Assembly (NCBI GenBank): GCA_043813915.1
Contig: JBDRKO010000012.1
Location: forward strand, 37,457-101,456
Source: Candidatus Omnitrophota bacterium
Lineage (GTDB): Bacteria > Omnitrophota > Gorgyraeia > Tantalellales > Tantalellaceae
DNA length: 64,000 nucleotides
Direction: 5' to 3'
Part shown: one piece after another, positions 20,890-41,025 of the stretch
Layout of the letters: every line of letters starts with the position of its first letter
Numbering within the stretch: the stretch's first letter is position 1
The notes under the pieces: model-generated
What the model was told of the DNA's origin: nothing
Seen by the model: the letters and a program-made list of their open reading frames with translations, nothing else
The model's database searches: none
Made by a program: the position numbers and the translations under genes

Positions 20890-22236
20890 ATGAGAAAGCT
20901 GACACCACCGCAGCTTCTGATCTTCAGTTTTTTTTGTGTCATAATTTTAGGCACGGGATTGCTGTCCCTTCCCGCCGCTACGGTGGACGGCAAAGCCTTG
21001 CCGCTGGTAGACAGCATATTCACGGCCACAAGCGCTACATGCGTTACCGGGCTTGTTGTCAGGGATACCGGGACCGTGTTCTCTCCTTTCGGGAGATGGG
21101 TGATATTCGCGCTCTTCCAGGCCGGGGGGCTGGGGATAATGACCTTTTCCACATTATTCGCTGTTCTTTTAGGCCGGAAGATCGGGTTCCGCGAGACCGA
21201 TGTCATAAGGAGCACGCTGAACAGGAATAATATTCTGGGTCTTAAAAAACTTATATCATACATTTTATGCATCACGTTCATAGCGGAAGGAGCCGGGGCT
21301 TTACTTTTATTCCTCAGGTGGAAAGTCTCGACGGATTGGAGTGTGCTGGAGATAGCGGAAAAAGCCGTTTTTCATTCAGTATCAGCTTTTTGTAACGCGG
21401 GATTTTCACTTTTTAAGAATAACCTTGAGGGATTTTTTAACGATCCGTACATAAATCTCATTATGATGGTCCTGATATTTCTCGGGGGTATCGGTTTCAT
21501 AGTTGTAATGGATCTACTGGGACTATTCGTTAAAAAAGGACCGGCAAGGCGCATCAGCCTCCAGGCCAAAGTAGTCCTTACGGTATCGGCCGCGCTGATA
21601 TTGATGGGCGCGGTGCTGCTTATGATCTTTGAAAAAGACAATACGATGAAAGGCATGGCTCTGTCCGGCAGAGGACTGAGCGCGCTGTTCCAATCCGTAA
21701 CGGCAAGGACCGCGGGATTCAATACGCTTAATATCGGGACTCTGACGGTACCGTCACTTCTCTCGGTCATATTCCTTATGTTCATAGGAGCGTCTCCGGG
21801 GTCGACAGGCGGCGGGATAAAGACCTGCACGTTCGCGGTAGTAGCGGCTCTGGTTTTCGGAATGATGAAGAACAAGAAACGCGTTATGTTTTTCGGGCGG
21901 TCCGTGCCCAAGCAGATCATAAGAGAAGCCGTAGTGATATTTTTTCTGGCGCTATCATGGATATTTGCCGGGACAATGCTTCTGGTGTACGCGGGAGGGA
22001 CATTTACCAAGGGAGGCGATGTGCTGGTCAAAGCGCTATTTGAGGTAGTATCCGCATTCGGGACCGTAGGCCTTTCTACCGGGATAACAGGCGCTTTAAG
22101 CGGCGCCGGAAAAATGATCATTGCCGCGACCATGTTCGCCGGAAGATTGGGCCCGCTGACCCTGGCATTGGCTTTAGCGTTCAAAGAACGCAAGGATAAT
22201 TACGTTTACCCCGAAGAGAATATCATGGTGGGTTAG
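20890..22236 (+). CDS. trkH: Trk/Ktr-type K+ transporter membrane subunit.
   Basis: It is a multi-pass membrane protein with repeated pore-loop GGxG motifs (GGIGF, GSTGGGI). Confidence 0.8.
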   Translation: MRKLTPPQLLIFSFFCVIILGTGLLSLPAATVDGKALPLVDSIFTATSATCVTGLVVRDTGTVFSPFGRWVIFALFQAGGLGIMTFSTLFAVLLGRKIGFRETDVIRSTLNRNNILGLKKLISYILCITFIAEGAGALLLFLRWKVSTDWSVLEIAEKAVFHSVSAFCNAGFSLFKNNLEGFFNDPYINLIMMVLIFLGGIGFIVVMDLLGLFVKKGPARRISLQAKVVLTVSAALILMGAVLLMIFEKDNTMKGMALSGRGLSALFQSVTARTAGFNTLNIGTLTVPSLLSVIFLMFIGASPGSTGGGIKTCTFAVVAALVFGMMKNKKRVMFFGRSVPKQIIREAVVIFFLALSWIFAGTMLLVYAGGTFTKGGDVLVKALFEVVSAFGTVGLSTGITGALSGAGKMIIAATMFAGRLGPLTLALALAFKERKDNYVYPEENIMVG

Positions 22237-22285
22237 GCGCCGAGCACGTAATGTCCGAGGTGTGTCGAAACCTCCGCGTTTCGAC
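22236..22285 (+). repeat. Copy A of the dispersed roughly 50-nt element GGCGCCGAGcACGtAATGTcCGAGGTG followed by a hairpin, here GTCGAAAC-CTCCGC-GTTTCGAC.
   Basis: It matches the copies at 35908, 37219, 37268 and 39081. It starts inside the trkH stop codon. Confidence 0.8.
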
Positions 22286-22343
22286 CAGAAGTTAGAGGGT
22301 ATTTAGTATTCGGTATTTGGTATATGGTGAATGGCGGATGGTG

Positions 22344-22371
22344 GTAGAGGCACGGCATGCCGTGCCTCTAC
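22344..22371. repeat. Perfect 28-nt palindrome GTAGAGGCACGGCATGCCGTGCCTCTAC, followed by cggttcacaaatc.
   Basis: It is its own reverse complement. A second copy at 59100 differs only by a compensatory pair. Confidence 0.85.
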
Positions 22372-22417
22372 GGTTCACAAATCCCGAGCTATACGCGACA
22401 AAAAAACGGAGGAGAGC

Positions 22418-23098
22418 ATGAAACAATATGCCGTTATAGGATTAGGCCGGTTCGGATCCAGTGTAGCGAGAGCGCTGGCCGAAAAAGGGAATCAGGTCAT
22501 CGCGGTAGATAAGAACGAAGAGCTGGTCCGTGACATAATGGATGTTGTCGCGAAAGCGGTGTGTTTGGATGCCAGCGATGAAAAAGCCGTTAAATCGGCG
22601 GGTATCCAGAACGTAGACGCCGCTGTCTGCGGAATAGGAACGGATGTTGAGTCGAGCATCTTGGTCACACTGATGCTGAAAGAACTTAATATTCCGGAAA
22701 TAGTATGCAAGGCGACCAGCGCTGCCCATAAAAAGGTCCTTGAAAAGATAGGGGCCACCAAAGTGGTTCTTCCCGAAAAGGATATAGGCGAAAGGCTCGC
22801 CGCTTCTTTGATGTCCCTGTCAGATACTGTCCGCGACCACATAGGACTTTCCGGCAATTCCAGTATAATAGAGATAATCGTACCGGACGAATTCATCGGA
22901 AAGACCTTGAGAGAGCTCGATATCAGGGCCGAATTCGGCGTTAATGTCATAGCTATAAAGAAAAAGACAGAGGGAAGCAAAGAAGAAAAAATAAACGTTA
23001 CTCCTCAAGCTGATGACGTTGTGGTAAAAGGCGACATCCTTGTGGTTTTCGGTGAGAACGAGAAAATAGACGCTCTAAAATTGAAAAGCGAGGGGTAA
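22418..23098 (+). CDS. trkA: Trk/Ktr K+ uptake regulatory subunit (RCK N and C domains).
   Basis: It has the Rossmann motif GLGRFG. A GGAGAG RBS precedes the ATG at 22418. Confidence 0.8.
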   Translation: MKQYAVIGLGRFGSSVARALAEKGNQVIAVDKNEELVRDIMDVVAKAVCLDASDEKAVKSAGIQNVDAAVCGIGTDVESSILVTLMLKELNIPEIVCKATSAAHKKVLEKIGATKVVLPEKDIGERLAASLMSLSDTVRDHIGLSGNSSIIEIIVPDEFIGKTLRELDIRAEFGVNVIAIKKKTEGSKEEKINVTPQADDVVVKGDILVVFGENEKIDALKLKSEG

Positions 23099-23142
23099 GA
23101 GAGGCAAGGCCCAAGGAAGAAGACGCAACAAAGGCATGAACA

Positions 23143-24159
23143 ATGGACGTGACTAAAAACCTGGAACGGATAAAAGCGGATTTCGAGGCCGAACTTGCTT
23201 CTTGCCGAAGCGAAAAAGAGATAGAGGCGGTCAAGGTAAAATTTGCCGGACGAAAAGGGGAACTTACCGAGATCCTAAGGTCTTTATCGGGGCTTTCCGC
23301 CGAACAAAAAAAAGAAGCCGGAAAATACGCGAACATGCTCAAACTTGATATTTCCGCTAAACTGGACGAGGCAGGAAAAAAGGTCAGAAATGAGGCCCGG
23401 GTAGATGAGATCATAGATATAACGTTACCCGGCATAACGAGACCCGCGGGAACGATGCATCCGCTGACAAAGGTATTGGACAAAATAAACAATATATTTG
23501 TGTCGATGGGGTTCAGTATAGCCGAAGGTCCGGAGATCGAGACCGAATTCTATAATTTTGAAGCGCTGAATATCCCGCTCGACCATCCTTCAAGAGACGC
23601 GTTCGACACGTTCTATATCGACCGCGCACATCTGCTCAGAAGCCATACGTCGAATGTTCAGATACATATAATGCAGAACAGTCCCCCGCCGATCCAGGCG
23701 ATAATGCCGGGCAGGGTCTATCGGCCGGATGCCGTGGACGCGTCACATTCTTTTATGTTCCATCAGGTCGAAGGGCTTATGGTGGACACGGATATCACCT
23801 TCGCGGACCTTAAAGGGGTCCTTTCGATGTTTATCCGAATGATGTTCGGCGATAAAGCTAAAATGAGGTTAAGGCCGCACTTTTTTCCGTTCACGGAACC
23901 CAGCGCGGAAGTCGATATCTCCTGTATCATTTGCGGGGGGACGGGATGCCGGGTATGTTCCGGCAGCGGATGGCTCGAGATCTTAGGAGCGGGCATGGTA
24001 GACCCTAAAGTGTTCCAAGCGGTCGGGTATGATCCCGAAAAATATAAAGGGTTCGCGTTCGGTATGGGCGCGGAAAGAATAGCCATGCTGCTCTACGGGA
24101 TAGAGGATATCCGTCTTTTTTATGAGAACGATGTGAGGTTCCTGAAGCAGTTTAAATAG
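23143..24159 (+). CDS. pheS: Phenylalanyl-tRNA synthetase alpha subunit.
   Basis: It has the motif FPFTEPSAEVD and class II motifs. Confidence 0.9.
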   Translation: MDVTKNLERIKADFEAELASCRSEKEIEAVKVKFAGRKGELTEILRSLSGLSAEQKKEAGKYANMLKLDISAKLDEAGKKVRNEARVDEIIDITLPGITRPAGTMHPLTKVLDKINNIFVSMGFSIAEGPEIETEFYNFEALNIPLDHPSRDAFDTFYIDRAHLLRSHTSNVQIHIMQNSPPPIQAIMPGRVYRPDAVDASHSFMFHQVEGLMVDTDITFADLKGVLSMFIRMMFGDKAKMRLRPHFFPFTEPSAEVDISCIICGGTGCRVCSGSGWLEILGAGMVDPKVFQAVGYDPEKYKGFAFGMGAERIAMLLYGIEDIRLFYENDVRFLKQFK

Positions 24160-24246
24160 TTCGTAGAGGGTAGTTCATAGTTCGTAGTTAAAAGTAAAAC
24201 CAAGCTTTCCGCTATGAACTCCGAACTAAACCCGAAGGGTTTTACA

Positions 24247-26277
24247 ATGAAACTCAGTTATGAATGGGTCAAAGAATACGTTAAGACCTCGGTCAGTCCT
24301 GAAAAAATGGCGGAAGGGCTTACCATGTCCGGGTCCGAGGTCGGAGAGATGACGAAGGCAGGCAAAGACACCGTCATGGAGCTTGAGATCACTTCCAACA
24401 GGCCTGACTGTCTTAGCGTTATAGGTCTTGCCCGCGAAATTTCCGCGGTATTTGACGCTGATCTGACATTGCCTTCTTTCGGTCCCGTTCAGGAGAAAGG
24501 CGCCAAGAAAATAAAATGTGTAATACAGAACAAACAATTGTGCCCGCTATATACCGCTAGGGTCATAGAAAATATCACCGTCTCCGGAACGTGTAAGAAG
24601 ATAACAGACAGAATAACCGCGGTCGGCATGAGAGGGGTCAATAATATCGTCGATATAACCAATTACTGTCTTTTGGAGACGGGACAGCCCATGCATGCTT
24701 TTGATCTGGACAAGATAGAGGGCAGCGCGGTGTACATAAGGGAAGCCGCGGAAAACGAAAAAATAACCACAATAGACGGCATGGACAGGACGCTTAAAAA
24801 AGGGATGCTTGTTATAGCCGATGAAAAAGGACCGATAGCCGTAGCCGGGGTCATGGGCGGTAAACGGACCGAAGTCGGAGAACGGACCGTGAATATTCTT
24901 CTGGAAAGCGCTTATTTTGACCCGCTTTCCATAAGAAGGACCTCCCGGGAATTAGGCATTTCCACGGATTCCAGCTACCGCTTTGAGAGAGGAGTGGATA
25001 AAGGCATGGTCGAAAAGGCTTCCGCTCGCGCTTCCGCGCTTATTCTGAAAGAAACCGGCGGCACGGCTTCTCCCTTATCGGCCGAAGGAAGCGTTAAGTC
25101 AGAAATGACGATCATAAAATTCAGAGTGCCGGAAGCCGGCAGGATCCTGGGGATGACCCTGACAACCCGAGAAACCGGAAAGATCTTTCAAAGGCTCGGA
25201 ATGACTGTAAAAAAAGAGGAAAAGGATGTATTGTTCGTTGAGGCACCTACCTTTCGGGGGGATATCGCAAGAGAGGTCGACCTGATCGAGGAAGCCGCCA
25301 GGATATACGGTTATGAGAAGATCCCTTCGGAGATAAAAAAAATGATCCCTCAGGTAACGCGGAAACAGCGGGGGAGAGAGGTCCAGGAAAAGATAAAACA
25401 GATAATGACCCGGTCGGGCTTCAGCGAGATCATGACATACAGCCTCATCAGCGTCGCGGCCTCCGGAAGGTTCGCTATGATATCAGGGGACGAGGTCTCT
25501 CTTATTAATCCGCTGTCGGAAGAGCAGAAAGTGCTTACCCCGCAGCTGATCGATGGTATGATGAAGACCATTTCCTGGAATTTGAACAGAAATAGCAGGG
25601 ACCTCATACTTTTTGAGATAGGAAAGGTATATGCTCCCGGGAAAAACGGTTTTCTCGAAACAGCTGTCCTTTGCGCGTCTATGACCGGAAGCGCACGGAA
25701 CAATTGGGCTGAAGGGAACAGAAAAGCGGGATTGTATGATCTTAAGGGCGCCCTAGAGGCGCTTTTTGACGGGCTTTCCGTCCCGCCTGTTTTTAAAAAG
25801 ACCCGGATCGAAGGAATGGTCAATTGCGCGGATATACACATCGGAGAGTCTGACGAAAAAGAAGGCTTTATCGCGGAGATAGGATATGGGTTATCGGACG
25901 CGTACGGTATTTCTCAGAAAGTTTATGTCTGTCATGTCCGGCTGGATACTTTAACGGCTAAGGCTGTTCTGGACAGCAAATATGTACCGATAGCTAAATT
26001 CCCTTCTTCGGACCGGGATATATCCATACTGTGCGCGAGAGAGACCGCCGCGGAGGAGATAAAGAAGATCATATGCCGTGCCGGAGGACCGGCCGTTAAA
26101 GGGGTGGCATTCAAGGATATTTATGAAGGGGAGCAGGTCCCTGCCGGCAAGAAAAGCCTGACATACGGCATCAAATACGGCTCGGATGATAAGACCCTCA
26201 CCGACGCGGAAACAGAAAGCGTTCACGGCAAGATCAAAGAAGCTCTTATTAAGACCCTCGGAGTATCTTTCAGATAA
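24247..26277 (+). CDS. pheT: Phenylalanyl-tRNA synthetase beta subunit. It appears to lack the N-terminal tRNA-binding (Myf) domain.
   Basis: The start is MKLSYEWVKEYV. The B3/4 and B5 regions are present, and the FDX-ACB-like C-terminus reads KDIYEG. Confidence 0.85.
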   Translation: MKLSYEWVKEYVKTSVSPEKMAEGLTMSGSEVGEMTKAGKDTVMELEITSNRPDCLSVIGLAREISAVFDADLTLPSFGPVQEKGAKKIKCVIQNKQLCPLYTARVIENITVSGTCKKITDRITAVGMRGVNNIVDITNYCLLETGQPMHAFDLDKIEGSAVYIREAAENEKITTIDGMDRTLKKGMLVIADEKGPIAVAGVMGGKRTEVGERTVNILLESAYFDPLSIRRTSRELGISTDSSYRFERGVDKGMVEKASARASALILKETGGTASPLSAEGSVKSEMTIIKFRVPEAGRILGMTLTTRETGKIFQRLGMTVKKEEKDVLFVEAPTFRGDIAREVDLIEEAARIYGYEKIPSEIKKMIPQVTRKQRGREVQEKIKQIMTRSGFSEIMTYSLISVAASGRFAMISGDEVSLINPLSEEQKVLTPQLIDGMMKTISWNLNRNSRDLILFEIGKVYAPGKNGFLETAVLCASMTGSARNNWAEGNRKAGLYDLKGALEALFDGLSVPPVFKKTRIEGMVNCADIHIGESDEKEGFIAEIGYGLSDAYGISQKVYVCHVRLDTLTAKAVLDSKYVPIAKFPSSDRDISILCARETAAEEIKKIICRAGGPAVKGVAFKDIYEGEQVPAGKKSLTYGIKYGSDDKTLTDAETESVHGKIKEALIKTLGVSFR

Positions 26278-26334
26278 GCGCGGCCAAAAAAAATCTGTTA
26301 CAAAACATTTTCAAAGTGATATAATTAAGTTACT

Positions 26335-26510
26335 GCTAAGTGCGTGAAGCGGGAACGATGAATTGGACCAACACGATAAAATAGGGAATCTAACTTTGAC
26401 GTTTTCTTTATGGGAACGGCAAGAGGGTACCCACCTGGGAAACCAGGTCTCAATTCTCTTTCTGCGCACGGCTTGTCGGGGTAGGGCCGGAGAAGTCCGG
26501 CCCTATTTTT
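26335..26510 (+). ncRNA. Candidate roughly 175-nt structured small RNA or cis-regulatory leader, family unassigned. It runs from a promoter-like TTACAA-N17-TATAAT at about 26300-26326 to an intrinsic terminator.
   Basis: No coding ORF fits. It contains a GAAA-tetraloop hairpin CCTGG-GAAA-CCAGG. The terminator GGGCCGGA-gaag-TCCGGCCC plus T7 lies at 26475..26510. Confidence 0.3.
26475..26510 (+). terminator. Rho-independent terminator: an 8-bp GC stem, a 4-nt loop and T7.
   Basis: The sequence is gggccggagaagtccggccctattttttt. Confidence 0.7.
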
Positions 26511-26605
26511 TTAGGAACAGTTCAGCTTGCATAAGGAACGCAAAGAGCATAGGGCATGGCGCATAGAGTTAAGGACCGAGGGATCGAAGGGAATACGGAA
26601 TAAGC

Positions 26606-27007
26606 ATGAAAGAACAGGGAACGGTTATTACAAGAGACGCGGACACAGCTACGGTCCGAATAGAGAAAAGTGAAGCTTGTTCTAAATGCTGTTCCTGCGA
26701 GAACGCGCGGGCGAGGATCATAACGGTAACCGTGGATAAGGCCGCCGGTGTCAATGTCGGCGATATTGTGGAGATAGAGGTAAGCCCTTCGACGATGTTA
26801 AAGACATACTGCTTTATTTATCTTTTTCCGTTAATGCTGTTCGCGGCCGGTTCGCTGAGCGTATACGCGTTCCTGAAAGACCCTCTAAAAAGTTTTGCGG
26901 CAGGATGCGCGTGCGCTATGATATATTACGTTATAATCGGCAGATATATAAAAAAGAAAAAATGTTTTGACGGTAAAGTGAGCATCAATAAGGTTCCGGG
27001 GGAATAG
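26606..27007 (+). CDS. RseC/MucC-family (SoxR-reducing system) membrane protein.
   Basis: It has the Cys-rich N-terminus CSKCCSC followed by two hydrophobic helices, and the size (133 aa) fits. Confidence 0.55.
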   Translation: MKEQGTVITRDADTATVRIEKSEACSKCCSCENARARIITVTVDKAAGVNVGDIVEIEVSPSTMLKTYCFIYLFPLMLFAAGSLSVYAFLKDPLKSFAAGCACAMIYYVIIGRYIKKKKCFDGKVSINKVPGE

Positions 27008-27100
27008 AAGCGGGAAGTGAGACGATAGAGAACAGTTTAAAAAGTTAAAAGGTTAAAAGGTTTAATGTAGGGGCGGGGTTGCCCCGCCCTAATAATAAAG

Positions 27101-27135
27101 GGCGCGGAAACCGCGCCCGTACAGTTTTTATTTTT
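27101..27135 (+). terminator. Probable intrinsic terminator GGGCGCGG-AAAC-CGCGCCC plus a T-rich tail.
   Basis: It is a stem-loop followed by gtacagtttttattttt, downstream of the RseC-like gene. Confidence 0.5.
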
Positions 27136-27232
27136 AATTTCGCTATACGATATACGAATACAACGCTGTGCCCTATGCTCTGTGCGCTATGCGATACCCC
27201 GATATTCTATACTAAAACGACAGGAGGGAAAA

Positions 27233-27454
27233 ATGGAACAACGAGTGAAAGACGCGATAGAAAAGGTGAGGCCGCTTTTGCAGAGAGACGGCGGTGATGT
27301 TGAGTTCGCCGCGCTTGAAGGAAAAACGGTAAAAGTGCGTCTTAAAGGAGCATGCTGCGGATGTCCGATGAGCCAGATGACGATCAAGAGCGTAGTAGAA
27401 GAGACCATCAAGAGGGAAGTTCCGGAAATAGAAAAAGTTGAGAACGTCATGTGA
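27233..27454 (+). CDS. NifU-like Fe-S cluster assembly protein (Nfu/NifU C-terminal domain).
   Basis: It carries the motif GACCGCPMSQMTIK. The start is the ATG at 27233, after an AGGAGGG RBS. Confidence 0.75.
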   Translation: MEQRVKDAIEKVRPLLQRDGGDVEFAALEGKTVKVRLKGACCGCPMSQMTIKSVVEETIKREVPEIEKVENVM

Positions 27455-27456
27455 TC

Positions 27457-28605
27457 ATGAAAACCATATATCTTGATGCCAATGCCGCAACGCGGCTGGA
27501 CCCGGAAGTGCTCGCTGAGATGATGCCGTTCCTGGGCGGAACCTACGGAAACGCTTCGAGCGCGCATATCTTGGGAAGAGAAGCGAAAAAACATATCGAG
27601 CTGGCCAGAAGAAGAGTAGCGGCCTTGATAGGAGCGGATCTTCCCGAAGAGATAATGTTCACATCCGGCGGGACCGAAGCCGATAATGCCGCGATAATAA
27701 GCGTGGCGGAAGCGCTGCGTCTGAAGGGTAACCATATAATAACTTCTTCAGTCGAACATCCGGCCGTCCTGAATACCTGCAGATACCTGGAAAAGAAGGG
27801 GTATAGCGTTACATATCTAAAAGCGGACAAATACGGGATGATAGATCCCCTTGAGGTAAAGGACTCCTTAACGGATAGGACGATATTAATAACCGTTATG
27901 ACGGCCAATAATGAGACCGGGACGATCATGCCGATACGGGAGATAAAAGATATTGCCCGGGAAAGAGAGGTTCTTTTCCATACGGACGCCGTGCAGGCGG
28001 CAGGAAAGATAAAGATCAATGATCGCGGCCCGGCAGCGGATATGATCTCTTTGTCCGGGCACAAGATGAACGGACCCAAAGGTGTAGGGGCATTGTATGT
28101 CAAAAAAGGGATAACATTCACTCCTTTTATCCGCGGCGGACATCAGGAAAACGGGAAAAGGGCCGGGACGGAGAACACGGCGGGTATTGTAGGGATGGGG
28201 AAAGCCAGCGAGAACGCGCGGGAAAAAGGCGAGGAGAGGAAAGAAAAGGTCAAGAGAATGAGGGATCGGCTATACGGCGATATAAAGAAAAAAGTGGACG
28301 CGAAAATAGAGCTTAACGGACATCCTTCGGAAAGACTGCACAATACTTTGAACGTAAGTTTTGAAGGGGTCAATGGAGAGTCTTTGGTCCTTGCCATGGA
28401 CCTGGAAGGGGTGTGTATTTCAACCGGGTCGGCATGTACATCGGGCTCTCAGGAGTCATCGCATGTTCTTAAGGCTATGGGACTTGACGACGACAGGGTA
28501 AACGGCGCGGTAAGGTTCTCTTTGGATCATTTTAATACGGACAGTGAAATTGAAGAAGCTTCGGACCGGCTTAAGGAGAGAGTGGCCCGAATAAGAGATA
28601 TATAA
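27457..28605 (+). CDS. Cysteine desulfurase (class V aminotransferase, NifS/IscS).
   Basis: It has the PLP motif SLSGHKMNGPKG and the active-site loop SSGSACTS. It overlaps the nifU-like gene's stop codon. Confidence 0.85.
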   Translation: MKTIYLDANAATRLDPEVLAEMMPFLGGTYGNASSAHILGREAKKHIELARRRVAALIGADLPEEIMFTSGGTEADNAAIISVAEALRLKGNHIITSSVEHPAVLNTCRYLEKKGYSVTYLKADKYGMIDPLEVKDSLTDRTILITVMTANNETGTIMPIREIKDIAREREVLFHTDAVQAAGKIKINDRGPAADMISLSGHKMNGPKGVGALYVKKGITFTPFIRGGHQENGKRAGTENTAGIVGMGKASENAREKGEERKEKVKRMRDRLYGDIKKKVDAKIELNGHPSERLHNTLNVSFEGVNGESLVLAMDLEGVCISTGSACTSGSQESSHVLKAMGLDDDRVNGAVRFSLDHFNTDSEIEEASDRLKERVARIRDI

Positions 28606-28685
28606 GCTTTTAAAACACTAACAAATAAAAAAGTGGGAATATTTTTAATATTCATGTATAATACTACGGGATAAAAGTGACAAAC

Positions 28686-29243: not shown

Positions 29244-29299
29244 ACTCAACCAAGTGTATTTGGTGCCAAGACGTCCTTCTTATTAAAAGGGAGGAACAT

Positions 29300-30871: not shown

Positions 30872-30900
30872 AGAATTAAAGGTCACCAGTTACCAGGTTA

Positions 30901-30944
30901 CCCCTGCCTGCCGGTTTACCTGCCGTAGGCATGGCAGGCAGGAA
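30901..30944. repeat. Composite palindrome cccCTGCCTGCCGGtttaCCTGCCgtaggcatGGCAGGCAGGaag.
   Basis: It is related to the CCTGCCTGCCGGCAGGCAGG palindromes at 32015 and 63759. Confidence 0.7.
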
Positions 30945-31003
30945 GTCACCGGTGACTAGGAAACTGGATACTGGTGATCACTTACAGGAAAGCTAGGGTT
31001 ATT

Positions 31004-31780
31004 ATGAGAATATTGTTCCTGGGAGACATAGTGGGGAGTCCCGGACGCGGGATAATCAAGAACCGTATTGCCGATCTTAAGAAAACGAAGAAGATCGACT
31101 GCGTTATCGCCAACGGGGAGAACGCGGCCGGCGGCAGCGGACTTACTCCTAAGATCGCCGAAGAACTGTTCGCCAGCGGGATAGATGTGCTGACGTCCGG
31201 TGACCATATATGGAAGAAAAAAGAGATATTTGACGTCCTCAGGACGACGAGCCGGCTTCTCCGTCCGGCGAACTATCCCGAAGGATCGCCCGGGTCCGGT
31301 TCCACGGTGATCGAAACGCCGAGCTCCGGAAAGGTGGGTGTGATAAACCTTATAGGACGCGTTTTTATGGAAGCGGTGGAATGTCCTTTTCGCACGGCCG
31401 AAAAAGAGATCGCTAAAATAAAGGACAAGACATCCGTCATTATCGTTGATATGCACGCGGAAGCGACAAGCGAAAAAGTCGCTCTGGGGTGGTATCTTGA
31501 CGGAAAGGTAAGCGCTGTTCTCGGAACGCATACGCATATACAAACGGCGGACGAAAAGATCCTTGATAACGGGACAGCGTATATTACGGATTGCGGGATG
31601 ACCGGTCCGTATGATTCCGTTATCGGAAGAAAAAAAGAGAATGTCATAGAAAGATTTATCACTCAGATGCCGGCCAGGTTCGAGGTAGCCGAGGGAAAAG
31701 TCGAAATGCACGGGGTTCTCTTGGACGTAGACGAAAAGACAGGCAAGGCGCGGAGTGTAGAGAGAGTGCAGGAGAGGTAA
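31004..31780 (+). CDS. YmdB-like metallophosphoesterase.
   Basis: The N-terminus MRILFLGDIVGSPGR matches. The rny-ymdB adjacency is as in Bacillus. Confidence 0.8.
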   Translation: MRILFLGDIVGSPGRGIIKNRIADLKKTKKIDCVIANGENAAGGSGLTPKIAEELFASGIDVLTSGDHIWKKKEIFDVLRTTSRLLRPANYPEGSPGSGSTVIETPSSGKVGVINLIGRVFMEAVECPFRTAEKEIAKIKDKTSVIIVDMHAEATSEKVALGWYLDGKVSAVLGTHTHIQTADEKILDNGTAYITDCGMTGPYDSVIGRKKENVIERFITQMPARFEVAEGKVEMHGVLLDVDEKTGKARSVERVQER

Positions 31781-31928
31781 GTGTTAAGATGTAAGTATTA
31801 AGTAATAAGTGTTGTTGGCGGGATGACGTGTAATGTTTTATGTGTAATGTGTGATGGGAAAGAGAAAAGAAGTCAGAGGACAGACGTCAGAAATCAGAGT
31901 GACGAGGGAAGAAGGACGAAGCCCAATA

Positions 31929-32054
31929 TTGTCATCCCGACCGAACGGAGGGAGTGGAGGGATCTGGATAAATGGACATCGGAATCGGGAGATCCCGATG
32001 CACCTCGAGCATTGCCTGCCTGCCGGCAGGCAGGCGGCTCACTCGGGATGACAA
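31929..32054. mobile_element. MITE-like 126-bp element with 12-bp perfect terminal inverted repeats TTGTCATCCCGA / TCGGGATGACAA.
   Basis: It shares the TIRs and internal segments (ggaatcgggagatcccgat; the palindrome CCTGCCTGCCGGCAGGCAGG) with the element at 63666..63821. Confidence 0.5.
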
Positions 32055-32105
32055 CGGAAGTATCGTTCACGAATTACAAATTACGAATTACGAATCACGA
32101 AAAAC

Positions 32106-33359
32106 ATGAAAGACGCAATGATCTATACTGTTACCCAGCTTACGCGGGACCTGAGGGACCTTTTGGAAGAAGCGTTCGCCAAGATCTGGGTGGAAGGGGA
32201 GATCTCGAATTACACGGTCTCATCGGCGGGGCACGCGTATTTCAGTTTAAAAGATAAAGAAAGCCTGCTTAATTGTGTTCTTTTCAAGGGGAGCGGGTCG
32301 AAAATAAAATTTACCGTCAAAGACGGAATGCAAGTCGTATGCGCCGGACGTATAAGCGTGTACGATAAAAGAGGACAATACCAGCTGTATGCGTCGGAAA
32401 TAGAACCTAAGGGGAAGGGAGCTCTTCAGCTGGCTTTCGAACAGTTAAAGGACAAACTTTCCAAAGAAGGTATTTTTGACGAAAAACATAAAAAGGCGAT
32501 ACCGCGCGTTCCCCTGCATGTAGGTATAGTTACATCGCCCACCGGAGCCGCCATAAAAGATATATTAAAGGTCGCGAAAAGACGGTTCGAGAATGTCGAT
32601 ATATCCATACGGCCGGTCAGGGTGCAGGGAGAAGGATCCGCCTCGGAAATAGCGGAAGCGATAAAAGAGCTTAACGATTATAATGGGTATATAGAAAGGA
32701 CCTCGTCCGGCGAGCATCCGATCGATGTCATAATAGTAGGACGCGGAGGAGGAAGCCTGGAAGACCTATGGTCCTTCAACGAGGAAGAAGTAGCCAGGGC
32801 AATTTACAATTCGAATATTCCTGTCGTAAGCGCCGTAGGGCATGAAATAGATTACACAATATCGGATTTTACCGCGGATATGCGCGCACCCACCCCATCG
32901 GCAGCGGCGGAGCTGATCCTGCCTAGGAAAGAGGATCTTATAGCCAGGATCACCCAATCTAGGAGAGGCTTGTATTCCGCGATGAAGGCAACCGTCGAGA
33001 ACCTAAGGACAACGGTAGAAGGGTTAGGAGAAAGTTATGTCCTGAGAAATCCCGTTAATGTGCTTCTTAGGATGAAACAGGAGATAGATGAAAAAGTCAG
33101 AGGGATCAATACTTTCATCTCGCATTTTCTGGATATCAAGCGCAAAGACTTGAACGGTTTGGCCGGCAAACTGCATATGTTAAGTCCGCTTGCCGTGCTT
33201 GAAAGAGGATACAGCATCACTTTGTCGGGCGGCAGCGCCATAAAAGACATAAGATCGGTAAGAAAGGGAGATAGTATAGAGACCCGCATGCACGGCGGAT
33301 ATATATCCAGCACGGTTATCGGGGTCAGTACCCCCGGGCGGGGCAAGGAGGAGGCATGA
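32106..33359 (+). CDS. xseA: Exodeoxyribonuclease VII large subunit.
   Basis: It has an OB-fold N-terminus and catalytic-domain motifs. It overlaps xseB. Confidence 0.85.
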   Translation: MKDAMIYTVTQLTRDLRDLLEEAFAKIWVEGEISNYTVSSAGHAYFSLKDKESLLNCVLFKGSGSKIKFTVKDGMQVVCAGRISVYDKRGQYQLYASEIEPKGKGALQLAFEQLKDKLSKEGIFDEKHKKAIPRVPLHVGIVTSPTGAAIKDILKVAKRRFENVDISIRPVRVQGEGSASEIAEAIKELNDYNGYIERTSSGEHPIDVIIVGRGGGSLEDLWSFNEEEVARAIYNSNIPVVSAVGHEIDYTISDFTADMRAPTPSAAAELILPRKEDLIARITQSRRGLYSAMKATVENLRTTVEGLGESYVLRNPVNVLLRMKQEIDEKVRGINTFISHFLDIKRKDLNGLAGKLHMLSPLAVLERGYSITLSGGSAIKDIRSVRKGDSIETRMHGGYISSTVIGVSTPGRGKEEA

Positions 33360-33580
33360 AAGATACAAATTTCGAAAAAGACCTTCAAAAACTCGAGAAG
33401 ATAGTAGCGGAACTTGAAGATGGGGAATTTTCGCTGGATTCGTCAATGAAAAAATATGAAGAAGGGATAAAACTTGCCCGCGCATGCCGGGAACAGCTGG
33501 AAAAAGCCCAGAAAAAAATAGAGATACTTATAAAAAAAGACGAAAACCTTTTTGAAAAACGGCCGTTTGAGGAAACTTGA
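33356..33580 (+). CDS. xseB: Exodeoxyribonuclease VII small subunit.
   Basis: It is 74 aa with a coiled-coil motif LEKIVAELEDGE.SLD. It overlaps xseA by ATGA. Confidence 0.8.
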   Translation: MKDTNFEKDLQKLEKIVAELEDGEFSLDSSMKKYEEGIKLARACREQLEKAQKKIEILIKKDENLFEKRPFEET

Positions 33581-33601
33581 AAGAGTGCAAAGAAGGAATA
33601 A

Positions 33602-35479
33602 ATGGGAACATTGCTTGATAAGATATCCTCTCCGGAGGACTTGAAAGAGCTCAGCATGGAGCAGTTGAAAGCCCTTGCCGGCGAGATAAGGGAAACGATA
33701 ATCAATGTTACATCCGAGAAAGGCGGGCATGTAGCCGCAAGTCTAGGAGCGGTGGAACTGGCCATAGCGCTCCACTATTGTCTGGACAGCCCAAAAGACA
33801 AGATCATATGGGACGTGGGGCATCAGAGCTATGCCCATAAACTGCTTACGGGCAGAAGAGAGAGATTCGGTACCTTAAGGGAAATGGGAGGGCTCAGTGG
33901 ATTTCCTCTCGCCGAAGAAAGCGAGCATGACCCGTTCACCTGCGGACATAGTTCTACTTCTATTTCAGCGGCTCTGGGAATGGCGTCCGCGAGGGACATA
34001 TCCGGGCAGGATAACAAAGTGGTCGCCGTGATCGGGGACGCGGCCTTGTCCACCGGCTTGGCATTCGAGGGGATGAATAATGCCGGCAACAAGCAGACCA
34101 ACCTGGTGGTGATATTGAACGATAATGAACATTCGATATCCAAGCCTGTAGGAGCGATGAGCAGATATCTTAATACCGTTATCACTAACCCGCTGTATAA
34201 CAAGGTGAGGCAGGAAGCCGAAAAGATCGTTAAGGGAATACCTAAACTGGGCCCGGCCGCGTATAATACGGTAAAAAAATTCCAAGAAGGCCTGAAAAAC
34301 CTTCTGGTCCCGGGTATAATTTTTGAAGAACTGGGGTTTCGGTATTTCGGGCCCATAGACGGGCACGATCTTAAGCAACTTATATCTACATTGCAGAAGA
34401 TATTACCTTTTAAAGAACCTGTTTTTATCCACGCAATGACCAAAAAAGGAAAAGGATACAAGTTCGCGGAAGAAGATCCCACCAGATTCCACGGGGTGAA
34501 CTTTTTTAATATCGCGACAGGCAGAACGGAAGCAGCGGACCCGAAAGGTAAGACATTCACGGAATATTTTTCCGATAAGATGGTAGAACTGGGGGAAAGG
34601 GATAAAAGAGTTGTCGCTATAACAGCGGCGATGCCTGACGGCACGGGACTCTCGGCATTCGCCAAAAAGTTCCCGAAACGGTTCTTTGATGTCGGGATAA
34701 CCGAACCGCATGCGGTAACTTTTTCCGCGGGGCTCGCGAAAGGCGGACTTAGACCCGTAGTAGCGGTTTATTCCACTTTTCTTCAGAGGGCGTATGATCA
34801 GCTTATACACGATGTTGCTCTGCAGAAACTCCCGGTGATCTTTTGTCTGGACAGGGCCGGGCTTGTCGGTAAGGACGGGCCTACGCATCACGGCGTTTTT
34901 GATATCCCCTACACGAGGAGTTTGCCGAATTTCACTGTCATGGCGCCTAAAGACGGAGAAGAGATGAAGCGCATGATGGACCTGTGTTTGGAATTGGAAG
35001 GACCTTCGGTCCTCAGATACCCCAGGGATACAGCCGGCCAGCTTGTAGGCATATCTTCCTGCGAGCCGCTAAAAAAAGGAAAAAGCGAAGTTTTGAGAGA
35101 AGGTAAGGACCTGACTATTTTAGCTATAGGAAGCATGGTGAATACCGCGCTTTCGGCCGCGAACATATTGTCAAAAAAAGGTATAGAGGCAACGGTAATT
35201 AACGCGCGTTTTATAAAACCTTTGGATGCGGAAATGCTGGAAGAACTGCCCCGCAATAAACGCAGAATATTCACTCTTGAAGAAGGGGTCGTTTCCGGAG
35301 GGTTCGGGAGCGGCGTGCTGGAATTCTTCGAGAGAGAGAATATAGCGAATATAAAGATAAGATGTTTGGGCCTGCCGGACGAGTTCATAGAGCATGGCGG
35401 CAGAGAAGAGCTTTTGAGAAAATATCACTTATCGGCTCCTGAAATAGCGGAAACGATACAGTCGGAACTAGGAAGATGA
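33602..35479 (+). CDS. dxs: 1-deoxy-D-xylulose-5-phosphate synthase.
   Basis: It has the TPP-binding motif GDGA.STG and transketolase-like domains. Confidence 0.9.
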   Translation: MGTLLDKISSPEDLKELSMEQLKALAGEIRETIINVTSEKGGHVAASLGAVELAIALHYCLDSPKDKIIWDVGHQSYAHKLLTGRRERFGTLREMGGLSGFPLAEESEHDPFTCGHSSTSISAALGMASARDISGQDNKVVAVIGDAALSTGLAFEGMNNAGNKQTNLVVILNDNEHSISKPVGAMSRYLNTVITNPLYNKVRQEAEKIVKGIPKLGPAAYNTVKKFQEGLKNLLVPGIIFEELGFRYFGPIDGHDLKQLISTLQKILPFKEPVFIHAMTKKGKGYKFAEEDPTRFHGVNFFNIATGRTEAADPKGKTFTEYFSDKMVELGERDKRVVAITAAMPDGTGLSAFAKKFPKRFFDVGITEPHAVTFSAGLAKGGLRPVVAVYSTFLQRAYDQLIHDVALQKLPVIFCLDRAGLVGKDGPTHHGVFDIPYTRSLPNFTVMAPKDGEEMKRMMDLCLELEGPSVLRYPRDTAGQLVGISSCEPLKKGKSEVLREGKDLTILAIGSMVNTALSAANILSKKGIEATVINARFIKPLDAEMLEELPRNKRRIFTLEEGVVSGGFGSGVLEFFERENIANIKIRCLGLPDEFIEHGGREELLRKYHLSAPEIAETIQSELGR

Positions 35480-35480
35480 T

Positions 35481-35702
35481 ATGGAAGAAAAAAAGAAATT
35501 GCGGATAAGAACGGAAAGATGCAAGGGATGCGGGCTCTGCATTAACGTATGCCCTTCCGGACATCTGAGCATGTCCGATGGAGTGAATAAACGAGGATCT
35601 AAATATGTTACGCTCAAAGAAGGCGGGAAGTGCACTTTATGCGGGATGTGCGCGGTAATCTGTCCTGATTGCGCTATAGAGATCAGAGAAGATGAAGGAT
35701 AG
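35481..35702 (+). CDS. 4Fe-4S ferredoxin, the probable delta subunit of the 2-oxoacid:ferredoxin oxidoreductase.
   Basis: It has two CxxCxxCxxxCP clusters. Confidence 0.7.
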   Translation: MEEKKKLRIRTERCKGCGLCINVCPSGHLSMSDGVNKRGSKYVTLKEGGKCTLCGMCAVICPDCAIEIREDEG

Positions 35703-35862
35703 ACGGTCCGAAGGAAGAGAGACGAAGGACGAAAGACGTGTTATGCGAGAAGTAGAAGTAGAAATGCTAACCTGGTTAGAAGATGCCAGGTTAGTATAAA
35801 ACCAGATCATTTACTTGGCAGCGTTAACCAGGTTAGATCGTACTTAACCTTATATTCAGGAC

Positions 35863-35970
35863 ATGAAACAGAAATATTTATGTACAGGAAATGAAGCTTG
35901 CGCGGAAGGCGCCGAGAACGTAATGTTCGAGGTGCGTCGAAACGCCCCTGTTTCGACGTTCCGATAAAAA
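35863..35970 (+). pseudogene. Diverged duplicate of the first 17 codons of the downstream oxidoreductase alpha gene (MKQKYLCTGNEACAEGA), fused to repeat copy B. It forms a 35-codon ORF.
   Basis: Nt 35863..35913 align to 35998..36048 with about 8 substitutions, mostly synonymous. The repeat element starts at 35908. Confidence 0.5.
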
Positions 35971-35997
35971 AATGAATGCTGAACGGTAAACTTGATC

Positions 35998-37056
35998 ATG
36001 AAGCAAAAATATCTATTTACAGGTAATGAAGCGTGCGCTGAAGGAGCGCTCCGCGCGGGATGCCGTTTTTACGCGGGGTATCCTATAACCCCGCAGAACG
36101 AGCTCATTGCCTACATGGCGCTTCATATGGAAGAACGCGGCGGCGTGTTCATACAGTCCGAAAGCGAACTTGCGGCGGTCAATATGGTGTTAGGAGCTTC
36201 TGCCGCGGGAGCGCGGGCTATGACAAGTTCGTCCTCACCGGGGATAAGCCTGAAACAGGAGGGTATATCGTATATGGCGGGGTGTGAACTGCCGGCCGTT
36301 ATAGTGAACGTAATGAGAGGGGGTCCCGGCCTTGGTAACATTTCCGCTTCACAATCAGATTATTTTCAGGCGACGAAAGGCGGAGGCCACGGAGATTACA
36401 GGATCATAGTTCTTGCTCCGTCAAGCGTGCAGGAGATGTTCGATCTTACCTTCAACGCGTTCACGCTAGCGGATAGATATAACACTCCCGTAATGGTGCT
36501 TTCGGACGGGCTTTTAGGACAGATGATGGAACCTCTCGAATATGACGAGGAGAGAGCTCCTGCCGGTATTGTGGATAAACCGTGGGCGATGAAAGGCTCG
36601 AAAGGGAACGCCGCCAAAAGCGTAAAAAGTCTGTATCTCGGGGACGGAGTGCTGGAAGCGCTCAATACAAAACTTCAAAAAAAATACGGAGAAATAAAGA
36701 GTAAAGAACCCATAGCCGAACTCTACAAATGCGATGACGCGGAAATAGTGCTTGTTGGGTACGGGTCCGTAGGACGTATACTGATGTCATGCGTGGATAT
36801 TCTAAGAAAAGAAGGCATTAAAGCCGGAGCGGTCAGACCGATAACTTTGTGGCCGTTCCCATGCGAGGCGATAAAGAAGCTCGCGGAAAAGATAAAGAGG
36901 TTCTTTGTGGTCGAAATGAGCGCGGGTCAGATGGTGGAAGATGTGATGCTCGCCGCTGAAGGAAGAACAAAAGTGGATTTTTATGGACGGACAGGCGGAG
37001 GTATCCCGCAGGAAGAGGATATAATAAAAGAAATAAAGAAAGTTCGTAGTAGGTAG
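35998..37056 (+). CDS. 2-oxoacid:ferredoxin oxidoreductase alpha subunit.
   Basis: The N-terminus LFTGNEACAEGALRAGCRFYAGYPITP matches KorA/OorA. Confidence 0.8.
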   Translation: MKQKYLFTGNEACAEGALRAGCRFYAGYPITPQNELIAYMALHMEERGGVFIQSESELAAVNMVLGASAAGARAMTSSSSPGISLKQEGISYMAGCELPAVIVNVMRGGPGLGNISASQSDYFQATKGGGHGDYRIIVLAPSSVQEMFDLTFNAFTLADRYNTPVMVLSDGLLGQMMEPLEYDEERAPAGIVDKPWAMKGSKGNAAKSVKSLYLGDGVLEALNTKLQKKYGEIKSKEPIAELYKCDDAEIVLVGYGSVGRILMSCVDILRKEGIKAGAVRPITLWPFPCEAIKKLAEKIKRFFVVEMSAGQMVEDVMLAAEGRTKVDFYGRTGGGIPQEEDIIKEIKKVRSR

Positions 37057-37218
37057 TTCATAGTTCGTAGTAGTTCGTGAACCGCCCGAAAAAAGAGGTC
37101 AGAGAGACGAAGGAAGAGAGACGATAGAGGGTCACCGGAGGGTAGAGGCGAGAAGATATAAGGTCACCTGGAGTAGGGGCGGGGTTGCCCCGCCCGAGGC
37201 GGGAAGTGAGAAGGAAGA

Positions 37219-37315
37219 GGCGCCGAGCACGAAATGTGCGAGGTGGGCAAAACGTCCCCGTTTTGATAGCCGAGCACGAAATGTGCGAGGTAGATCGAAA
37301 CCTCCGTGTTTCGAC
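37219..37315 (+). repeat. Two tandem copies, C1 and C2, of the roughly 50-nt GGCGCCGAG element. The hairpins are GCAAAACG-tcccc-CGTTTTG and GATCGAAAC-ctccgt-GTTTCGAC.
   Basis: They align directly with copies A, B and D. Confidence 0.8.
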
Positions 37316-37393
37316 AATCTAGTTCTAGATCTCTCGACCCGCTTTGCTCGCTCGAGATGACAATATAACCGCCGCTAAACAAAAAGAACAAAC

Positions 37394-38125
37394 ATGGCAA
37401 AGACATTTAAAAGACCTGATTCGATGAAAGATGTGCCGATGCATTATTGCGCCGGATGCGGACACGGGTTGATACACAGACTGATATGCGAAGTTATAGA
37501 TGACCTTGGCATAAAAGGAAATACGGTAGCGGTGGCACCCGTAGGATGCGCCGTGCTCGCCTATGATTACTGGGATTTTGATACTATGGAAGCGCCGCAT
37601 GGACGGACACCGGCCGTAGCGACGGGACTTAAACGCGTTCTGCCGGATAGTCTGGTATTTACGTATCAGGGCGACGGCGATCTTGCCGCTATCGGGACGT
37701 CCGAGATCATACATGCCGCCAATCGAGGAGAAAATATTTCCGTTATATTTGTCAATAACGGTGTATACGGGATGACCGGAGGACAAATGGCTCCTACGAC
37801 TCTTAAAGGTCAGATAACCGCGACATCACCGCATAAGCGCAGAGTTGAAAAAGAAGGATATCCTTTAAAGATAACGGAAATGATGGCCCTTCTTGACGGA
37901 ACAGCTTATCTTGAAAGAACATCGGTAGATTCTTACGTGAATATCACTAAAACCAAAAAAGCTATAGAAAAATGTTTCAGGACCCAGCTCGACAAAAAAG
38001 GGTTTTCCATGGTAGAGATAATTTCGCCATGCCCCACTTATTGGGGAATGTCACCGGAGAGATCCATGGAAAGGATACGCAGCGAAGTTGTTAAGGAGTA
38101 TCCGTTGGGAGTTATTAAAGGGTAG
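37394..38125 (+). CDS. 2-oxoacid:ferredoxin oxidoreductase beta subunit (TPP-binding).
   Basis: It has the motifs HYCAGCGHG and GDG. Confidence 0.85.
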   Translation: MAKTFKRPDSMKDVPMHYCAGCGHGLIHRLICEVIDDLGIKGNTVAVAPVGCAVLAYDYWDFDTMEAPHGRTPAVATGLKRVLPDSLVFTYQGDGDLAAIGTSEIIHAANRGENISVIFVNNGVYGMTGGQMAPTTLKGQITATSPHKRRVEKEGYPLKITEMMALLDGTAYLERTSVDSYVNITKTKKAIEKCFRTQLDKKGFSMVEIISPCPTYWGMSPERSMERIRSEVVKEYPLGVIKG

Positions 38126-38357
38126 TTAAAGAGAGGTCAGAAGACAGAAGTCAGAGGGCAGAAAGACGAAGGACGATAGAAGAAGTGTCAGAGTGTCAAA
38201 GTGTCCGGGTGTCAAAAAGTTGTGGCGAATGATGTTCTCTCTTCCGTCATTGCGGGGACTTCTGCGAAGCTCTACCAGGGGCCCATATTATATTAGAGCG
38301 TAGCAGAGGATGAAGCAATCTCAAGAGAGTCTGTAATTTAATATTTGGATCTTATTT

Positions 38358-38903
38358 ATGAAGAATACCATTCACCACACTATTATTTGCGCCGGGTTCG
38401 GCGGGCAGGGCATAATGGTGCTCGGCAAAGTAATTGCCGAAGCCGGAATGCTAGCCGGGATGAACGTGACATGGCTTCCTTCCTACGGCGCCGAGGTCCG
38501 CGGAGGAACGGCACATTCGGCCATAAGAATAAGTTCCGGCAAGATCGCGAGCCCTATCGTCTCCGGAACGGATACGGCCATTATAATGAACGGACCTTCT
38601 CTGGATAAATTCGAAAAAAGAATAGTTCCGGGAGGGCTTCTTGTGCTCAATACCTCCATGGCCGAGAGGACCTCCGATAGAAAGGATATTGAGATAGCGA
38701 ATGCACCCTTGACGGAGGAAGCTATAAAATTAGGTAACATAAGGGTCGCTAATATCATAGCGGTCGGGATATATCTGTCAAAAAGGAATATTTTGACCAA
38801 AGACGCGGCCGTTGAGGCCATAAAAAAAATGGGTTCAGGGAAAAAAGAACTGGTAGAGATAAATATTAAAGCGTTAGAATTGGGGATGGAGATAGGGAAG
38901 TAA
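38358..38903 (+). CDS. 2-oxoacid:ferredoxin oxidoreductase gamma subunit.
   Basis: It has the motif ICAGFGGQGIMVLGKVIAEAGM. Confidence 0.8.
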   Translation: MKNTIHHTIICAGFGGQGIMVLGKVIAEAGMLAGMNVTWLPSYGAEVRGGTAHSAIRISSGKIASPIVSGTDTAIIMNGPSLDKFEKRIVPGGLLVLNTSMAERTSDRKDIEIANAPLTEEAIKLGNIRVANIIAVGIYLSKRNILTKDAAVEAIKKMGSGKKELVEINIKALELGMEIGK

Positions 38904-39048
38904 GGGGTAGATGTCAGAAGCCAGAAGTCAGAGGTCAGAGACACGAAGGAAGAAGGACGAGGGACGAGAGAATAGTTTGAAAAGTTAAAACGTTTTAAAA
39001 GTTAAAAAGTACAAAGGGTAGGAAGAGGGAGGAAGTAGCTACTCCCTA

Positions 39049-39128
39049 TTGTCATCCCGAGTGAGCCGAAGGCGAATCGAGGCGCCGAGGACGAAGTGTC
39101 CGAGGTGGGCAAAACGTCCCCGTTTTGA
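39049..39128 (+). repeat. Left-TIR-like segment TTGTCATCCCGAGTGAGC followed by copy D of the GGCGCCGAG element, with hairpin GCAAAACG-tcccc-CGTTTTG.
   Basis: It links the MITE-like family and the 50-nt element family into one mosaic. Confidence 0.7.
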
Positions 39129-40952: not shown

Positions 40953-41025
40953 CGGCCTATATCGTCGACCAACGGCACGAGTATTTCCAGCTCAAACAGT
41001 CCTCGCCCCTTAAATCCATCCGGGA

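Follow-up and report, generated by a model that had tools for sequence, protein, structure and literature searches.

A family of short interspersed repeats with a conserved two-hairpin fold in Omnitrophota

Identification of the repeat family

A stretch of 64,000 nt from a Candidatus Omnitrophota bacterium (assembly GCA_043813915.1, contig JBDRKO010000012.1, positions 37,457 to 101,456 of the forward strand), hereafter called the window, contains seven copies of a repeat of approximately 52 nt that folds into two consecutive hairpins. The most probable reading, at about 55%, is that these copies belong to a family of non-coding interspersed repeats of an Omnitrophota clade, which resembles the repetitive extragenic palindromic (REP) sequences, the bacterial interspersed mosaic elements (BIMEs) and the BOX elements, would spread as DNA, and would fold in a strand-specific manner. 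By analogy with these known repeats, the family is filed as new within the bacterial interspersed hairpin repeats.

All seven copies (A to G, Table 1) are intergenic, five of them being on the + strand and two on the - strand. The core CCGAGNACGWARTGTNCGAGGT is matched without any mismatch on the + strand at 22240, 35912, 37223, 37270 and 39085, with 0.01 chance matches expected from shuffled sequence. The original prediction, made from the letters of the window alone, had placed + strand copies at these five sites, all of which are borne out, and had counted at least six copies; copy G, which was detected with a repeat finder, had been missed. The inverted copy that it described does exist, as shown by reading the - strand, but the range given for it (63781-63826) joins the 5' part of copy F to part of a different upstream repeat, the true span running from 63793 to 63725. 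A covariance model run without filters over the window finds the seven copies and no other match above noise.

Structure of the unit

The unit comprises AGG, hairpin 1 and hairpin 2, the two hairpins being separated by one nucleotide. Hairpin 1 is nearly invariant and reads GCGCC, GA, G-N-A-C, the loop GNRAU, G-U-N'-C, GA and GGUGY. Its outer stem of 5 bp (GCGCC/GGUGY) includes a G.U pair that is invariant in 16 of 16 copies. This stem is followed by a symmetric GA/GA internal loop (tandem G.A/A.G), which lies in a 5'-CGAG-3' context on either strand, the classical context of tandem sheared G.A pairs. The inner stem of 4 bp (G-N-A-C/G-U-N'-C) has one covarying pair, and loop 1 occurs as GUAAU, GAAAU, GCAAU or GAAGU. 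Hairpin 2 has 6-10 bp and a variable stem (GUCGAAAC, GCAAAACG, GUCGGAAC and UCGGRAUC, among others), and its loop keeps UCCC or CUCC in spite of the variation of the stem. The predicted stability of the hairpins is -15 to -29 kcal/mol. A stem closing both hairpins is found only in copy B, and weakly in copy E, and is not general; inspection by eye gave no sign that the 5' AGG flank covaries with loop 2.

The stems and C-rich loops of hairpin 2 had been quoted correctly in the earlier description, in which the 27 nt preceding them figured as a shared block. The block is indeed shared, except that its variable positions also include A/T (copy B) and that copy D lacks its first 4-5 nt. The fact that this block itself folds as a hairpin with a covarying pair had been overlooked.

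Among the individual copies, copy A exhibits a C.C mismatch at the covarying pair of hairpin 1, and its hairpin 2 is GUCGAAAC/GUUUCGAC with the loop CCUCCGC. The covarying pair is A-U in copy B, where loop 2 is GCCCCU, and C-G in copy C, where hairpin 2 is GCAAAACG/CGUUUUG(A) with the loop UCCC. Copy D has a hairpin 2 of (GA)UCGAAAC/GUUUCGA(C) with the loop CUCCGU. Copy E has G-C at the covarying pair and GAAGU as loop 1, and it shares its 5' AGG with the last nucleotides of an upstream TTGTCATCCCGAG...CGAGG repeat (39049-39082). Copies F and G carry the same perfect palindrome of 20 nt, CCTGCCTGCCGGCAGGCAGG (63759-63778 and 32015-32034, respectively), which in copy F splits the shared block and lengthens hairpin 1. 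Hairpin 2 of copy F is GGAAUC/GAUUCC with the loop UCCC, and the copy is flanked by inverted TGTCAT(C/T)CCGAG repeats. Copy G has a hairpin 2 of 10 bp, including one G.U, and a chimeric 5' half, the TTGTCATCCCGAGTGAGCC end of another repeat family being present in its place; it is best read as an apparent E/F-like composite with a 26-nt deletion. The palindrome, which is also present in one copy of Candidatus Aadella gelida, is inserted after the G of loop 1, ahead of UAAU, and lengthens hairpin 1 in all three copies; loop 1 of the unit is its sole position in all the DNA examined.

Selection on the structure and strand specificity

Covariation was tested on 17 distinct copies from four Omnitrophota assemblies, after removal of the palindromes. 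Standard pairs are formed in 96% of the stem cells, and double changes are observed in 6 of 17 pairs (16 cells), values that none of 500 shuffles reaches. When the partners were slid by 1-3 columns as a control, pairing was only 27-45%. RNAalifold, used unguided, predicts the same two hairpins. At the inner covarying pair of hairpin 1, G-C is found in 10 copies, and C-G and A-U in 2 copies each; two rows are mismatched, among them copy A, an apparent recombinant of two types. Compensatory changes had been claimed for the stem of hairpin 2 as a sign that structure is kept, and the test on the 17 copies supports this claim. As the double changes define few subfamilies, which are common to several species, the independent covariation events are few, and this apparently subfamily-level covariation cannot separate RNA from single-stranded DNA.

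One-sided changes all yield G.U, with no A.C pairs, and in 17 of 19 copies the complementary strand gives a less stable fold than the given one. Given these G.U intermediates, the strand stability, the invariant G.U and the tandem G.A, the fold belongs to one strand, which would be either RNA or single-stranded DNA. The earlier proposal of a selected RNA or cruciform structure therefore holds for the selected structure, but a symmetric, double-stranded cruciform is not favoured by the aligned copies. Palindrome-templated mutation could also create paired changes, yet it would not keep the G.U and G.A mismatches.

Distribution among genomes

Copies were searched for in one genome per prokaryotic species. 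Outside the window, true copies are present in three metagenome-assembled genomes (MAGs) only: that of Ca. Aadella gelida, with nine strict matches and at least 10 copies, the Omnitrophota MAG JAGLIU01, and the MAG JAHIUU01, which is labelled Dependentiae. The other eleven matches are chance matches in high-GC genes. The covariance model adds three further copies, including a palindrome-bearing one in the vor operon of Aadella and a 5'-truncated one in JAGLIU01. Viral contigs gave 0 matches, and a metagenome scan with GCGCCGAGNNCGNNNNGNNCGAGGTG gave 1 true copy among 120 loci, which were mostly high-GC coding matches. The family is apparently confined to a small Omnitrophota clade comprising the window organism, Ca. 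Aadella gelida and the two other MAGs. Literature searches by phylum with repeat or RNA-motif terms, or with the repeat sequence strings, found nothing relevant.

The window shares 99.97% identity with contigs of assembly GCA_018817765.1 and of an ENA assembly, its VorB protein carries the NCBI annotation Candidatus Omnitrophota, and the same repeat sequence is present in independent assemblies from ENA, NCBI, JGI and Logan. Two contigs of independent assemblies (L143 and L147) end inside copies. The Aadella copy is identical between the strains compared.

Conservation of the unit and turnover of its sites

Comparisons between genomes show the family to be, as judged from the aligned units, far better conserved between species than neutral DNA. 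Unit identity between genomes is 86-96%, versus only 40-49% at the third codon positions of vorB in the same genomes, which are saturated. The copies do not cluster by species: copy A is identical to an Aadella copy at 49 of 51 positions and to copy B at 44 of 51. Likewise, the A-U variant of the covarying pair occurs in both the window genome and Aadella.

The sites show a different pattern. The block RNase Y-YmdB-XseA-XseB-Dxs-VorD-VorB-VorA-VorC-GltX-GlnS is syntenic in eight relatives, in which short spacers or overlapping genes are found at the sites of copies B, C/D and G, and the model finds no copy there; in Aadella and six further relatives, these sites are tight and empty. The vorC-gltX spacer is the only one occupied in Aadella, by a copy of a different subtype into which the vorC reading frame extends for 16 codons. 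In one relative, unrelated GTCATTGCGAG...GACGAAGCAATC repeats occupy these spacers. Together, the six spacers of the block comprise approximately 2.3 kb in the window versus approximately 0.24 kb in Aadella, a difference of about ten-fold. As the orthologous sites in relatives are mostly empty, the individual copies are insertions and not conserved regulators, and this turnover of sites argues against a gene-specific regulator.

The copies also show signs of recombination and truncation. Copy C is a mosaic, as its hairpin 1 is that of copy D and its hairpin 2 is that of copy E, and locus L009 has two hairpin-2 modules in succession. Copies D and L016b are cut at the 5' end, and the copies at L014 and L017 have ends within 2 nt of each other, directly 3' of loop 2. 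L014 and L018 are nested within flanking inverted repeats of 13 bp and 17 bp, occupying their loops, and copies F and G belong to a longer mosaic, which recurs with its modules in the same order.

According to Pfam, the neighbours of the copies are unrelated housekeeping genes, including trkH/trkA, ymdB/xseA, the vor operon, a response regulator, holA/murI, ftsW, ruvX and fur. Between co-directional genes, approximately 13 copies are in sense orientation, four of them in one operon, and 3 are antisense. No promoter-like or terminator-like site coincides with a copy.

Comparison with known repeats

The REP/BIME (PU) elements of Enterobacteria and the REPINs of Pseudomonas are, like the Omnitrophota repeat, short, multi-copy, extragenic imperfect palindromes often located in operons, where they form mosaics with other short motifs and keep a consensus while copies turn over. 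Their known effect at the RNA level is the protection of mRNA 3' ends. The Omnitrophota element differs from them in that all its units begin with (R)AGGCGCC and none with a GT(A/G)G foot, each unit has two different hairpins, no RAYT gene was seen beside the 17 copies or in the 221 kb covered by tblastn, and hairpin 1 has a G.U and a tandem G.A that are invariant across genera. In addition, its copies are single and not arranged in inverted doublets, the only pair, C-D, being a direct tandem.

The BOX elements of Streptococcus pneumoniae (boxA-boxB-boxC) are similar in that a conserved module is followed by second modules of variable number or type. They likewise occur as truncated or mosaic copies, are intergenic, have stable predicted RNA folds and have no transposase of their own. 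In contrast, there is no sequence similarity to the present element, which is approximately 52 nt long versus 100-200 nt or more and belongs to another phylum. Miniature inverted-repeat transposable elements (MITEs), such as Correia/NEMIS of Neisseria and RUP, are also small, non-autonomous, intergenic, and present or absent at orthologous sites, and they can be co-transcribed and processed. However, the Omnitrophota element lacks both terminal inverted repeats and a target-site duplication, and there is no parent insertion sequence whose ends match it. Its 5' end, AGGCGCCGAG, and its 3' end, GTTTCGAC, are not complementary, and inspection by eye of the flanks of 18 loci found no direct repeat, the script having sought inverted arms only.

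Several known RNA and DNA motifs were considered as identities and rejected. The element is not a kink-turn, as the tandem G.A forms a symmetric 2x2 internal loop and there is no three-nucleotide bulge. The GA-stem-GA arrangement resembles G8A9/G12A13 of hammerhead stem II, but the flanks GCGCC/GGUGY pair together and there is no Rfam match to a hammerhead. Other ribozymes, integron attC sites and uptake sequences were also rejected.

Proposed biology of the repeat

As an interspersed repeat, the unit would multiply as DNA, and its insertion and recombination would be directed preferentially to intergenic DNA and to the loops of palindromes already in place. The G.U and the tandem G.A would make hairpin 1 the sequence-specific recognition site of a putative trans-acting protein, whose role could be to mobilise the unit as single-stranded DNA, to bind it as RNA, or both. 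As most copies lie in sense orientation inside operons (vorDBAC, trkHA), they are probably co-transcribed, and by analogy with the REP/BIME elements of Escherichia coli they would most likely serve there as stable stem-loops between cistrons, either retarding exonucleolytic degradation or marking sites of processing.

Several observations weigh against this reading. As terminal inverted repeats, target-site duplication, the GTAG head and inverted pairs are absent, the units being single or in direct tandem, the features that define REP/RAYT and MITE systems are lacking. Pfam detects no transposase beside any of the 17 copies, and a tblastn search for IS200 TnpA in 221 kb gave no match, although this was a weak test. 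The bias towards the sense strand (approximately 13 of 16) would also fit an RNA function. Finally, such a strong conservation across genera is more typical of an RNA with a host function than of a selfish repeat.

Alternative explanations

One alternative is a functional structured RNA module, which we regard as possible, albeit doubtful. Hairpin 1, with its sheared G.A and its G.U, would be a protein platform, whereas the C-rich loop 2 would pair in cis or in trans with Shine-Dalgarno-like tracts, tuning the translation or stability of the host operon, and mobility would only deliver the module. CCUCC/UCCC is the anti-Shine-Dalgarno sequence, and copies in operons lie beside purine-rich GAAGGA/GGAGG-like tracts. 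The strand-specific fold and its orientation bias fit such a role, as do the maintenance of unpaired nucleotides (GA/GA, the GNRAU loop and the UCCC/CUCC loop) and the unit identity of 86-96% across genomes with saturated synonymous sites. The optional stem extension is found only in loop 1 and is typical of structured RNAs. Nevertheless, copies are not kept at orthologous sites, three or four of approximately 17 are antisense to their neighbours, the next start codon lies anywhere from approximately 1 to 425 nt away (from crude open reading frame calls), and truncated copies without half of hairpin 2 persist. Furthermore, no partner sequence covarying with the loop was seen by eye, and there is no Rfam family match. 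With Rfam 15 at gathering thresholds, only three tRNAs and 6S RNA are detected in the whole window; in an E-value search of three element regions, the best match is RAGATH-28, which at 19.9 bits (E = 0.15) falls short of its threshold of 45.3 and is mismatched at the G.A positions. C-rich UCCC/CUCC hairpin loops, which can in principle pair with the Shine-Dalgarno sequence, are also found in the RNAIII and Rsa RNAs of Staphylococcus aureus and in other anti-Shine-Dalgarno mimics. However, RNAIII and Rsa are discrete small-RNA genes with promoters and terminators, whereas the element is a dispersed repeat in operons.

It is unlikely that the unit is the hairpin end of a single-stranded-DNA transposon or a REP-like substrate of an HUH (Y1) enzyme, with hairpin 1 as the binding hairpin and a nick in or beside the C-rich loop 2. 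The ends of IS200/IS605 elements and the REPs are strand-specific imperfect hairpins with conserved mismatches, a description that also fits the present unit. The independent copies L014 and L017 share an end immediately downstream of loop 2; this, the nesting of copies in the loops of other palindromes, and the maintenance of the loop sequence while the stem varies all point in this direction. On the other hand, the nick site would rest on these two truncated copies only, the GTAG head is missing, and no Y1/HUH gene was found beside any copy or in the 221 kb covered by the weak tblastn search mentioned above.

An intrinsic transcription terminator or attenuator is very unlikely, even though the hairpins are stable and, in copies A and L020, come directly after a stop codon. 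Hairpin 2 is not followed by a U-tract, the sequence after it is not T-rich, and a terminator scan of 31700-39500 is blank at every copy in that range. Moreover, copies are found within an operon, between genes whose counterparts in relatives overlap or abut, and some are situated in divergent intergenic regions, upstream of genes.

Chance similarity, an assembly artefact and a repeated peptide-coding segment are effectively refuted: although 5 of 6 consensus reading frames are open and upstream open reading frames continue in frame into copy B and the Aadella vorC copy, seven copies stand against 0.01 expected, independent assemblies from four sources agree, the compensatory changes give non-conservative residues (D V M S, H E M C, N V M F), and a peptide search with a synthetic five-frame query finds no protein family.

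Neighbouring repeats and other features of the window

A second repeat family, TGTCAT(C/T)CCGAG...GAGTCGAGGRATC, occupies the same intergenic niches as the two-hairpin unit and has in common with it a CCGAG...CGAGG clamp (C-G pairs flanking a tandem G.A), but differs in having its own ends and a variable centre. It is physically fused to copies E, F and G, and lies inverted after copies D, F and G. The predicted fold of this family (TGTCAT...CGAGG) is not clearly better than that of shuffled sequence. The GTCATTGCGAG...GACGAAGCAATC repeats of one relative, mentioned above, are grouped with it and have the same clamp. A strictly REP-like perfect palindrome with a GTAG head, GTAG(A/G)GGCACGGCATGCCGTGCC(T/C)CTAC, forms a family apart from the element, and one of its copies lies 60 nt downstream of copy A.

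Two gene-end fragments were found copied within expanded spacers. The first is a 47-nt copy of the vorB 5' end (MKQKYLCTGNEACAEGA), located 132 nt upstream of the real start, which runs in frame into the 5' end of copy B with a junction at the microhomology GAAGG/CGCC. It exhibits 9 differences from the real gene, and since 8 of these are synonymous, the fragment probably comes from a diverged functional allele. The second, in the gltX-glnS spacer, repeats the last 47 nt of gltX, the stop codon and 6 nt with 96% identity, 265 nt downstream. The spacers are also padded with purine-rich quasi-simple repeats, GTCAGAAGTCAGAGG and GACGAAGGACGATAGAAG, and with CACGAATTACGAAT tracts.

Table 1 Positions of the repeat copies and of other features in the window
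Feature	Position	Strand	Context
Copy A	22235-22285	+	begins at the TAG stop of trkH, upstream of trkA
Copy B	35907-35957	+	between vorD (ferredoxin subunit) and vorB
Copy C	37218-37267	+	between vorB and vorA
Copy D	37269-37315	+	abuts copy C directly, in tandem
Copy E	39080-39131	+	between vorC and gltX
Copy F	63725-63793	-	downstream of a response-regulator gene
Copy G	31977-32046	-	between ymdB and xseA, antisense to both
Second repeat family	12228-12280, 31928-31968, 37324-37366 (-), 39049-39082, 63668-63712, 63790-63821 (-)		
Second repeat family, outside the window	L017 595-640; L150 1225-1290, 2098-2150, 2750-2800		
Spacer padding tracts	31868-31933, 38132-38197, 38909-38988, 42969-43034, 63860-63892 (-); 32066-32118, 39286-39352, 41257-41309		
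GTAG-headed palindrome	22344-22371, 59100-59127		
vorB 5' fragment	35866-35912		
Matching part of vorB	35998-36044		
End of gltX	40633-40688		
Repeated end of gltX	40898-40953		gltX-glnS spacer
6S RNA gene	26327-26486	+	directly after pheT
Giant open reading frame	158-12145	+	
tRNA-Cys	16593-16666		
286-nt repeat cluster	16703-17495		downstream of tRNA-Cys
tRNA-Val	17045-17121		within the 286-nt repeat cluster
147-nt direct repeat	43202-43348, 48147-48293		
Tyrosine recombinase gene	48174-49256	-	overlaps the second copy of the 147-nt repeat
tRNA	52317-52388	-	approximately 3 kb beyond the recombinase gene
62-nt repeat	53150-53211, 58349-58410		

Other features of the window were also noted. 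The 6S RNA gene matches Rfam RF00013 with 49 bits versus a threshold of 46.4. The giant open reading frame encodes 3995 aa and has internal repeats of 98-169 nt, and a 286-nt repeat is present in three overlapping copies (71-95% identity) around tRNA-Val. A 147-nt direct repeat with 80% identity brackets a 4.9-kb segment comprising an AAA_14/DUF4143 ATPase and an unknown open reading frame of 925 aa; with the tyrosine recombinase gene and the tRNA located nearby, this segment may be an integrated element. A 62-nt repeat (95% identity), which contains the inverted repeat GGGACGTTTCC...GGGAAACGTCCC, flanks a 5.2-kb cluster that comprises a TPR protein and three unknown proteins.

Implications for Omnitrophota

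A more far-reaching reading is speculative and rather improbable. The element would then be a mobile, structure-selected module with a dedicated putative partner protein, for which hairpin 1 would be the binding site, and the CUCC/UCCC loop would be either the nick site of a new HUH-type single-stranded-DNA mobilisation system or an anti-Shine-Dalgarno decoy that reprograms the translation of the host operon. If true, an uncultivated phylum would harbour a new class either of hairpin elements or of portable RNA regulators. The element merits follow-up on account of the hairpin with its invariant G.U and tandem G.A, its conservation across genera, the palindromic extension specific to one loop, and the common truncation point after the CUCC loop.

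Omnitrophota are uncultivated and, to our knowledge, nothing is known of their non-coding DNA. With its covariance model, the family is an easily searchable marker, which could be used to understand why assemblies of these genomes break, to track the approximately ten-fold intergenic expansion in conserved operons, and to seek the protein that recognises the very conserved G.U/tandem-G.A hairpin. Should this partner prove to be a new mobilising enzyme or an RNA-binding regulator, the element would offer a handle on it.

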